A DNA stretch of 801 nt, taken from the NCBI RefSeq assembly GCF_003334315.1, contig NZ_QOWR01000129.1, one strand, 5' to 3'. Below, piece after piece: positions 1 to 801 of this stretch (position 1 is its first letter; each line of letters begins with the position of its first letter). A program made the position numbers and the translations under genes. The notes under the pieces were generated by a model. That model made no database searches. It was given only the letters and a program-made list of their open reading frames with translations, and was not told the origin of the DNA. This DNA is from Escherichia coli. Its GTDB lineage: Bacteria > Pseudomonadota > Gammaproteobacteria > Enterobacterales > Enterobacteriaceae.

Positions 1-149
1 GGTTGAGAAGCGGTGTAAGTGAACTGCAGTTGCCATGTTTTACGGCAGTGAGAGCAGAGATAGCGCTGATGTCCGGCAGTACTTTTACCGTTACGCACCA
101 CCCCGTCAGTAGCTGAACAGGAGGGACAGCTGATATAAACAGAAGCCAC
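1..149 (-). CDS. insA: InsA (IS1 transposition regulator / N-terminal part of the InsAB' transposase), 5' partial: first 49 codons, continues off-window
   Basis: GTG start at 149..147 on the minus strand. Translation is (M)[48 protein letters not shown], open to the window edge. It contains the CxxC...CxxC zinc-finger pattern typical of InsA. The six-frame track misses it because the start is GTG and the ORF runs off the window. Confidence 0.9.
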
Positions 150-156
150 TGGAGCA

Positions 157-160
157 CCTC
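157..160 (-). promoter_or_regulatory. Shine-Dalgarno-like GAGG for insA
   Basis: GAGG on the minus strand, 7 nt upstream of the GTG start codon at 149..147. Confidence 0.5.
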
Positions 161-169
161 AAAAACACC

Positions 170-197
170 ATCATACACTAAATCAGTAAGTTGGCAG
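170..197 (-). promoter_or_regulatory. Putative insA promoter embedded in IRL (-35-like CTGCCA, -10 TATGAT)
   Basis: On the minus strand, TATGAT lies at 175..170 and a weak -35-like hexamer CTGCCA at 197..192, 16 bp apart. This is about 20 bp upstream of the insA GTG start. The insA promoter is known to sit partly inside IRL; exact hexamer assignment here is my inference. Confidence 0.4.
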
Positions 198-204
198 CAT
201 CACC
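182..204 (-). repeat. IS1 left terminal inverted repeat (IRL), about 23 bp
   Basis: Reverse complement of 182..204 is ggtgatgctgccaacttactgat. It is an imperfect inverted match to 349..371 (ggtaatgactccaacttattgat), as expected for the IRL/IRR pair of IS1. Confidence 0.9.
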
Positions 205-348
205 CGCCGTCTCAATAGCCCGGTTGTTGTATTTAATCAATACAGCCTGAAGACGTTCTGAATATTTCCTCTCCTGCACTACATTGTTTTTTGTACGGGA
301 CTGGATACCGTCATTAATCAGTTTTTCCAGCAGCTCTACCGCCAGATT
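205..348 (-). pseudogene. 144-bp internal gene fragment, in frame with no start or stop; tentatively a type I restriction enzyme R-subunit (HsdR) C-terminal remnant, truncated on both sides by IS1
   Basis: Minus-strand translation from 348 to 205 is NLAVELLEKLINDGIQSRTKNNVVQERKYSERLQAVLIKYNNRAIETA (48 codons, no stop). The ...SERLQ...KYNNR.I... pattern matches my recollection of the conserved C-terminal region of HsdR proteins. The HsdR assignment is from memory, not a search. Confidence 0.45.
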
Positions 349-371
349 GGTAATGACTCCAACTTATTGAT
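349..371 (-). repeat. IS1 right terminal inverted repeat (IRR), about 23 bp
   Basis: ggtaatgactccaacttattgat at 349..371 is the imperfect inverted partner of the IRL at 182..204. The insB stop codon (366..364) lies inside it. Confidence 0.9.
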
Positions 372-801
372 AGTGTTTTATGTTCAGATAATGCCCGATG
401 ACTTTGTCATGCAGCTCCACCGATTTTGAGAACGACAGCGACTTCCGTCCCAGCCGTGCCAGGTGCTGCCTCAGATTCAGGTTATGCCGCTCAATTCGCT
501 GCGTATATCGCTTGCTGATTACGTGCAGCTTTCCCTTCAGGCGGGATTCATACAGCGGCCAGCCATCCGTCATCCATATCACCACGTCAAAGGGTGACAG
601 CAGGCTCATAAGACGCCCCAGCGTCGCCATAGTGCGTTCACCGAATACGTGCGCAACAACCGTCTTCCGGAGCCTGTCATACGCGTAAAACAGCCAGCGC
701 TGGCGCGATTTAGCCCCGACGTATCCCCACTGTTCGTCCATTTCCGCGCAGACGATGACGTCACTGCCCGGCTGTATGCGCGAGGTTACCGACTGCGGCC
801 T
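364..801 (-). CDS. insB: InsB (C-terminal catalytic part of the IS1 InsAB' transposase), 5' partial: reading frame open to the window edge, stop at 366..364
   Basis: The track ORF 364..741 ([16 protein letters not shown]...[15 protein letters not shown]) matches IS1 InsB. The same frame stays open upstream of that Met to position 801 ([25 protein letters not shown]...), as expected because InsB is expressed as a frameshift fusion to InsA and not from this ATG. Acidic residues in DEQWGYV, MTDGW and RIERH are consistent with a DDE-type catalytic triad (exact residue assignment inferred). Confidence 0.93.
786..801 (-). CDS. insA: 3' end of insA of copy B (last 5 codons plus stop), overlapping the insB frame
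   Basis: Minus strand from 800 reads ggc cgc agt cgg taa = GRSR-stop, the InsA C-terminus (...LKNSGRSR). The TAA stop is at 788..786, in the 0 frame relative to the -1 insB frame. The fragment is very short, so confidence is moderate. Confidence 0.6.

Follow-up and report, generated by a model that had tools for sequence, protein, structure and literature searches.

What history placed the ends of two IS1 elements on either side of 144 bp in the 801-base window analysed here (the window being the whole stretch of DNA, at its full length)? The original prediction offered two answers. Two independent hits in one gene would be recognized by target-site duplications, the bases next to each IS1 end being repeated at the far end of the same copy, and by a host gene that continues colinearly on both outer sides. 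If either repeat were missing, one junction would have been created by deletion or inversion.

Two IS1 copies in direct orientation

The window has three parts: the left end of one IS1 (copy A), a 144-bp spacer, and the right end of a second IS1 (copy B). The features are as follows, with strands given relative to the window.

1..204, minus strand: left-end portion of IS1 copy A (IS1 nt 1-204), 100% identical to annotated IS1 copies
158..3, minus strand: start of insA in copy A, from the window's reading frames
182..204, minus strand: IRL of copy A, outermost base 204, identical to the annotated IS1 end
205..348, minus strand: internal hsdR fragment of 144 nt, in frame, codons 879-926 (NLAVELLEKLINDGIQSRTKNNVVQERKYSERLQAVLIKYNNRAIETA), an exact match to 6001-6144 of the reference locus L001
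205..213: candidate target-site duplication of copy A, cgccgtctc (8-bp form, 205-212)
340..348: candidate target-site duplication of copy B, cgccagatt (8-bp form, 341-348)
349..371, minus strand: IRR of copy B, outermost base 349, identical to the annotated IS1 end
349..801, minus strand: right-end portion of IS1 copy B (IS1 nt 316-768), 100% identical to annotated IS1A/IS1B copies
801..367, minus strand: 3' part of insB in copy B, encoding the InsB C-terminus, with its stop at 364-366

Copy A contributes 204 bp to the window and continues beyond its left edge; copy B contributes 453 bp and continues beyond its right edge. The IRL at 182-204 reads ATCAGTAAGTTGGCAGCATCACC (the reverse complement of GGTGATGCTGCCAACTTACTGAT) and the IRR at 349-371 reads GGTAATGACTCCAACTTATTGAT. 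They agree at 18 of 23 positions and so have the form of the imperfect terminal inverted repeats of about 23 bp that characterize IS1. Judged by sequence, the two arms are true IS1 ends and a chance inverted repeat is excluded, because positions 1-204 and 349-801 are 100% identical to annotated IS1. The window's remaining repeats (D1-D3 and I2-I6), all short and imperfect, were treated as chance.

That the two arms come from different IS1 copies, as had been proposed, is confirmed by alignment to a full-length annotated IS1 (L015): positions 1-204 align to its transposase-start end (the IRL side) and positions 349-801 to its transposase-stop end (the IRR side). The window's reading frames concur, with the InsA N-terminus in copy A and the InsB C-terminus in copy B. 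A point that the original prediction did not contain is that both copies are on the minus strand and are therefore direct repeats, with a start-to-start distance of 912 bp and 144 bp between the two ends. IS1 makes InsAB' by programmed frameshift, with insA beside the IRL and insB beside the IRR. The frameshift region (about IS1 nt 205-315) falls outside the window for both copies; matching E. coli copies carry the annotation 'programmed frameshift'. Full-length reference elements measure 768 bp (L015, L018) and 735 bp (L014).

The spacer is a piece of hsdR

IS1 swamps BLAST searches made with the whole window or with a junction plus IS1, and the spacer alone was used as the query for identification. 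All 144 of its nucleotides are identical to a type I restriction R-subunit gene (hsdR) present in 61 of the 5,426 complete E. coli genomes. The gene is chromosomal, and the spacer is colinear with its intact allele. No match to the spacer was found in 72,556 PLSDB plasmids or among phage records. The reference allele (NZ_CP022730.1 3184629-3187763, locus L001) has 3,135 nt and 1,044 codons and is invariant, with 0 of 3,135 nt differing between two unrelated genomes. The intact reference product, of which the window holds only codons 879-926, has the domains PF04313, PF18766/PF04851, PF22679 and PF11867, and hsdM and hsdS adjoin its gene, as befits a type I R subunit, which is marked by an HSDR_N nuclease, a SWI2/SNF2-ResIII motor and C-terminal helical domains. 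The spacer falls within the T1RH-like_C domain (PF11867, residues 712-1040), and both insertion points are in that domain.

Across the two sites the intact gene reads ...caatcacctg/cgccgtctc... and ...ctaccgccagatt/tcgatatggc... (the slash marks the position of the IS1 end in the window). Since the intact gene runs on where the window shows IS1 ends, the boundaries between IS1 and host DNA are unambiguous, at 204/205 and 348/349. The idea that a single host gene was interrupted thus holds for the DNA at hand: 205-348 is an exact, colinear piece of hsdR.

The hsdR locus and its island

In the reference locus the gene order is hsdM-hsdS-DUF4268-hsdR, with hsdR last and all genes of the cluster on one strand; hsdR corresponds to the minus strand of the window. 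The cluster is in an integrase-bearing island that adjoins a tRNA-Leu gene. This island (L001 1752-12144; L016 1-21194) is packed with defence genes, among them a phosphorothioated-DNA-binding (ScoMcrA-like) HNH endonuclease, a TIR-domain gene and a dynamin-like GTPase pair, and its type I restriction-modification system contains an embedded DUF4268 gene. The DUF4268 gene proved too common to serve as an anchor (3,745 blocks, of which 24 were read).

The island varies in several ways. A look-up with a C-terminal HsdR fragment returned many contigs, and these carry a different, common deletion allele that has no IS1 at its junction. In the assembly collection, 142 blocks carry this truncated form of the island. 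It results from a deletion of about 9.5 kb that fuses a 227-aa gene (beside the dynamin-like GTPase) to hsdR at ...ccagccagtaa/ccgggctattgagacggcg and removes the TIR gene, hsdM, hsdS, DUF4268 and about 920 codons of hsdR. There is no IS1 end at the junction, which shows imperfect microhomology (aaGCGGG versus aaCCGGG). The coordinates, L002 9960-10010 and L009 290-330 in comparison with L016 5290-5330 and 13950-13990, correspond to about 205-226 of the window, and the hsdR breakpoint is only about 5-15 bp from the target of copy A. The proximity of the two sites could perhaps be a sign that loss of restriction was selected repeatedly in the lineage. We think it very unlikely, however, that the 3' stretch of hsdR is a recurrent hotspot for breaks and insertions, or that the window shows a mobile composite of IS1, hsdR fragment and IS1 outside hsdR.

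One contig with the deletion allele (L009) begins inside an IS1 (1-77) whose IRL abuts ...ctgagccggaatgattcc. This point falls in what is left of the 227-aa gene, and the truncated hsdR fragment follows about 240 bp downstream; being at another site, this IS1 is an independent hit on the island. In CP163792.1 (L017 8591-10014), where hsdR is intact, the gene calls split hsdS into ORFs of 158 and 292 aa, against a single gene of 474 aa, and the TIR gene encodes 300 aa against 325 aa. These differences suggest that further parts of this defence island have decayed independently. IS1 adjoins a type I restriction gene in a second case also, NZ_CP033401.1 (L014 970-1704). There the element lies some 30 bp downstream of a different hsdR, which is intact (WP_001096907.1); it is a 735-bp variant that has lost 33 bp internally and lacks a target duplication.

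Candidate target-site duplications

The bases beside the IRL of copy A and the IRR of copy B had been said to differ, and they do: cgccgtctc (205-213) and cgccagatt (340-348) are different 9-mers, each of which occurs once in the window. The former is unique also in the 12-kb reference locus. IS1 target duplications are of 8 or 9 bp, and IS1 is reported to favour AT-rich targets (PMC5009759). Neither target here is AT-rich, the GC content within 30 bp on each side being 0.46-0.48.

How reliable is a duplication as a mark of simple insertion? Ordinary IS movements leave one, as was found for 69 of 69 in an analysis of the LTEE, and a missing duplication points to recombination between IS elements or to an adjacent deletion, such loss being frequent (PMC11708052). 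To this extent the duplication logic of the original prediction fits the literature. Its choice between two mechanisms is nevertheless incomplete, because recombination with a distant IS1 and movement of a Tn9-like unit could also have operated. Three full-length E. coli IS1 copies were inspected as controls; one (L018) has an 8-bp duplication and two (L014 and L015) have none. Natural IS1 copies without duplications are accordingly not rare. The L018 element (3039-3806, NZ_CM166349.1) is a full-length IS1 with the exact 8-bp duplication GGCGTCAC on both sides, and a retron Ec67-family reverse transcriptase/endonuclease gene follows about 70 bp downstream of it. Because IS1 duplications are of 8 or 9 bp, and that of L018 is of 8 bp, the 8-mers at 205-212 and 341-348 must be compared with the outer flanks besides the 9-mers. 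The outer junctions of both copies are beyond the window.

IS1 abundance and isoforms

The IS1 parts of the window are of a very common kind. Each has annotated copies with 100% identity and occurs in more than 4,950 of the 5,426 complete E. coli genomes; positions 1-204, for example, are matched over at least 80% of their length in 4,961 of them. The number of places occupied by IS1 in an E. coli genome has a median of 10-11 and a maximum of 68. The two ends differ in the frequency of their isoforms. The left end of copy A is a minority isoform, since of the 9,412 E. coli records that match it only 296 do so at 99% identity or more, whereas the right end of copy B is a common one (at least 99% identity in 7,605 of 9,484 records).

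Copy A's left end has silent changes (GGT AAA AGT ACT), and its InsA start reads MASVYISCP. The canonical InsA start of IS1 is MASVSISCP. There are also two variants of the IRR, GGTAATGACTCCAAC in copy B (window 349-371) and GGTAATGGTCCCAAC at L015 937-959 and L014 970-992, the latter being carried by E. coli elements that have the left-end isoform of copy A. If copy A has this GTC form of the IRR, copies A and B would be different isoforms and not donor and product. Isoform typing was considered as proof that the copies are different element types and was set aside: one full-length E. coli IS1 matches the left end of copy A exactly and is 3 nt off copy B, with all three differences in the IRR. 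The typing is indecisive because this one element joins the left end of copy A to a right part close to that of copy B. Overlapping parts of A and B are not both in the window, and the comparison between them is accordingly indirect.

Search for the double-insertion allele

Neither inner junction was found in any of the 5,426 complete E. coli genomes, where the best coverage, 60%, was that of the intact gene. As exact sequences, the left junction was absent from GTDB representative genomes, IMG/VR and JGI metagenome contigs, and the right junction from GTDB representative genomes and JGI metagenome contigs. A synthetic query with both predicted outer junctions, which could also have revealed a collapsed derivative with a single IS1, had no counterpart in complete E. 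coli genomes; the one odd row that it returned (H151) lies next to an unrelated IS1 and is an extension by chance.

The predicted protein products gave a similar picture. Exact look-ups put neither the predicted 33-aa middle ORF on record nor the read-through of HsdR 1-881 into the IRL for either duplication length (9 or 8 bp), and when an HsdR cluster of about 885 aa ending in an IS1-derived tail was sought by homology, only clusters of short fragments came up. This absence of chimeric products is weakly negative for simple insertion, and is explained equally well if the source assembly is missing from the collection. What is unrecorded in the collections searched is only this double-insertion allele of hsdR; its components and configuration are already known.

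Origin of the IS1 pair

We favour two simple insertions in separate events, each with its own duplication and the second probably by a short-range hop, and regard this history as about evenly poised between right and wrong. Under it, a first IS1 would have entered the 3' part of hsdR and a second would have landed about 135 bp away, probably by local hopping. The order along hsdR would be 5' part, copy B, codons 879-926, copy A and 3' part; both copies point in one direction, which is also that of hsdR. Each copy would bear its own duplication of 8-9 bp: cgccgtctc would be found again outside the IRR of copy A, and cgccagatt again just outside the IRL of copy B.

In the orientation of the window, the predicted outer left junction is ...caatcacctgCGCCGTCTC/GGTAATG..., or in longer form ...ctcttcaatcacctgCGCCGTCTC/GGTAATG(ACT or GTC)CCAAC..., and the predicted outer right junction is ...GCATCACC/CGCCAGATTtcgatatggc..., which can also be written ...TTGGCAGCATCACC/CGCCAGATTtcgatatggcatatcg... 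(the slash again marks the junction). The adjoining hsdR sequence expected on the outer flanks is ...ctcttcaatcacctg on the left and tcgatatggcat... on the right. With both elements taken out and each duplication reduced to a single copy, the intact gene of 1,044 codons should be regained.

At each inner junction an IS1 terminus meets hsdR precisely, and the spacer is 100% identical to that gene and colinear with it, as two insertions into one gene predict. With the inner 144 bp intact and colinear, no deletion or inversion took place between copies A and B. By the standard model of replicative transposition, a single intramolecular event yields either a deletion, after which one IS remains, or an inversion with inverted copies at its ends. 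Because the pair is in direct orientation, copy B did not come from copy A in one intramolecular replicative step. Must the closeness of the two insertions then be put down to coincidence? The expected number of chance pairs of IS1 within 150 bp is 0.03 per genome for 30 copies and 1.2 for 200 copies. Local (short-range) hopping is documented for IS1, however, and most IS-caused deletions stem from one existing and one new nearby insertion (PMC5009759), so no coincidence is needed to account for two copies 144 bp apart. The two-insertion history is weakened by how common natural IS1 copies without duplications are, by targets that are not AT-rich, and by junctions that occur in no searched collection.

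Loss of an original outer flank would leave the same inner picture. Here one or both copies would have lost, or would never have had, their original outer flank, either because an IS1 first located elsewhere promoted an adjacent deletion that ran into hsdR and so made an inner junction, or because homologous recombination (deletion or inversion) with a distant IS1 exchanged an outer flank; part of hsdR would be missing or relocated and at least one copy would lack a matching duplication. We think this main rival possible, though on the doubtful side. Duplications are often lost in just these ways, through IS-IS recombination and adjacent deletion (PMC11708052), the former being common in E. 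coli, with a rate per genome and generation of 4.5e-5 (PMC5009759); two of our three control copies lack one. The chimeric proteins that simple insertion predicts were not on record in exact look-ups, and the island undergoes large internal deletions that end in the same part of hsdR. Against this, the endpoint of a deletion would have had to fall, by accident, no more than 144 bp from another IS1 end, on the correct strand and in the same gene, and local hopping is a simpler route to what is seen.

The direct orientation of the IS1 repeats around a segment, observed here, is also the layout of Tn9, and the junctions are in none of the E. coli chromosomes with this hsdR allele. Both facts would suit a Tn9-like composite of IS1, 144 bp and IS1 that arose in hsdR and was then transferred whole to a site such as a plasmid or another chromosomal locus, where the hsdR fragment would be a passenger and the outer flanks, unrelated to hsdR, would share one duplication of 8-9 bp. 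The spacer is absent, however, from the PLSDB plasmids and phage records, a 144-bp gene fragment confers no selectable trait, and nothing in the window indicates a new location; we consider such a transfer very unlikely. An assembly artefact, whether a mis-join or a collapsed repeat in an IS1-rich genome, would mean that a single IS1 or some other arrangement is the real one. Genomes with IS1 at 10-11 places in the median and at up to 68 are hard to assemble, and the structure is in no other assembly searched. The base-precise IS1 termini on exact hsdR sequence nevertheless speak for a real structure, as a repeat mis-join would not make two such junctions 144 bp apart, and the copies may differ in isoform frequency (A minority, B common). 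We accordingly give an artefact very little weight.

Comparison with known systems and consequences

Set beside the simple gene-disrupting insertions of IS1A/IS1B type in Escherichia and Shigella, the two copies have the same ends, inverted repeats, insA start and insB end, and the same precise joins to the target; nothing about them is different in kind from ordinary IS1 insertions. The local-hopping intermediates described by Lee et al. 2016 (PMC5009759) likewise have two direct IS1 copies well within 1 kb, and a direct nearby pair of this kind was inferred there to be the precursor of most short IS-caused deletions. Those intermediates come from mutation-accumulation lines, whereas the present case is a standing structure in a natural or unknown genome.

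Tn9 consists of direct IS1 copies flanking a passenger segment. The window resembles it in having two IS1 copies as direct repeats around a short segment, of 144 bp; it differs in that the passenger is an in-frame gene fragment of 144 bp without a function of its own, and in that the spacer is absent from plasmids. The insertions also recall type I systems of the r- m+ kind, in which HsdR is lost and the M2S1 methyltransferase is kept, since here too only hsdR is hit, in its C-terminal domain; in the present case, by contrast, the phenotype is deduced from the cluster order of the reference.

HsdR would be cut off at about residue 881, within the T1RH-like_C domain. Methylation would be unaffected, because hsdR is the last gene and hsdM and hsdS are upstream, and the strain should accordingly be restriction-minus and modification-plus. 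The importance of the structure beyond annotation is small: it is textbook IS biology and an ordinary gene disruption that will not surprise a specialist. For annotation, hsdR should be described as a pseudogene that two IS1 elements have disrupted. With 912 bp from start to start, the direct repeats should be unstable and prone to recombine with loss of one IS1 and of the 144 bp. Such recombination would leave a single IS1 between two different 9-mers, an example of how copies without a duplication arise. The strain itself, predicted to be deficient in restriction and still methylating, could take up foreign DNA more easily.
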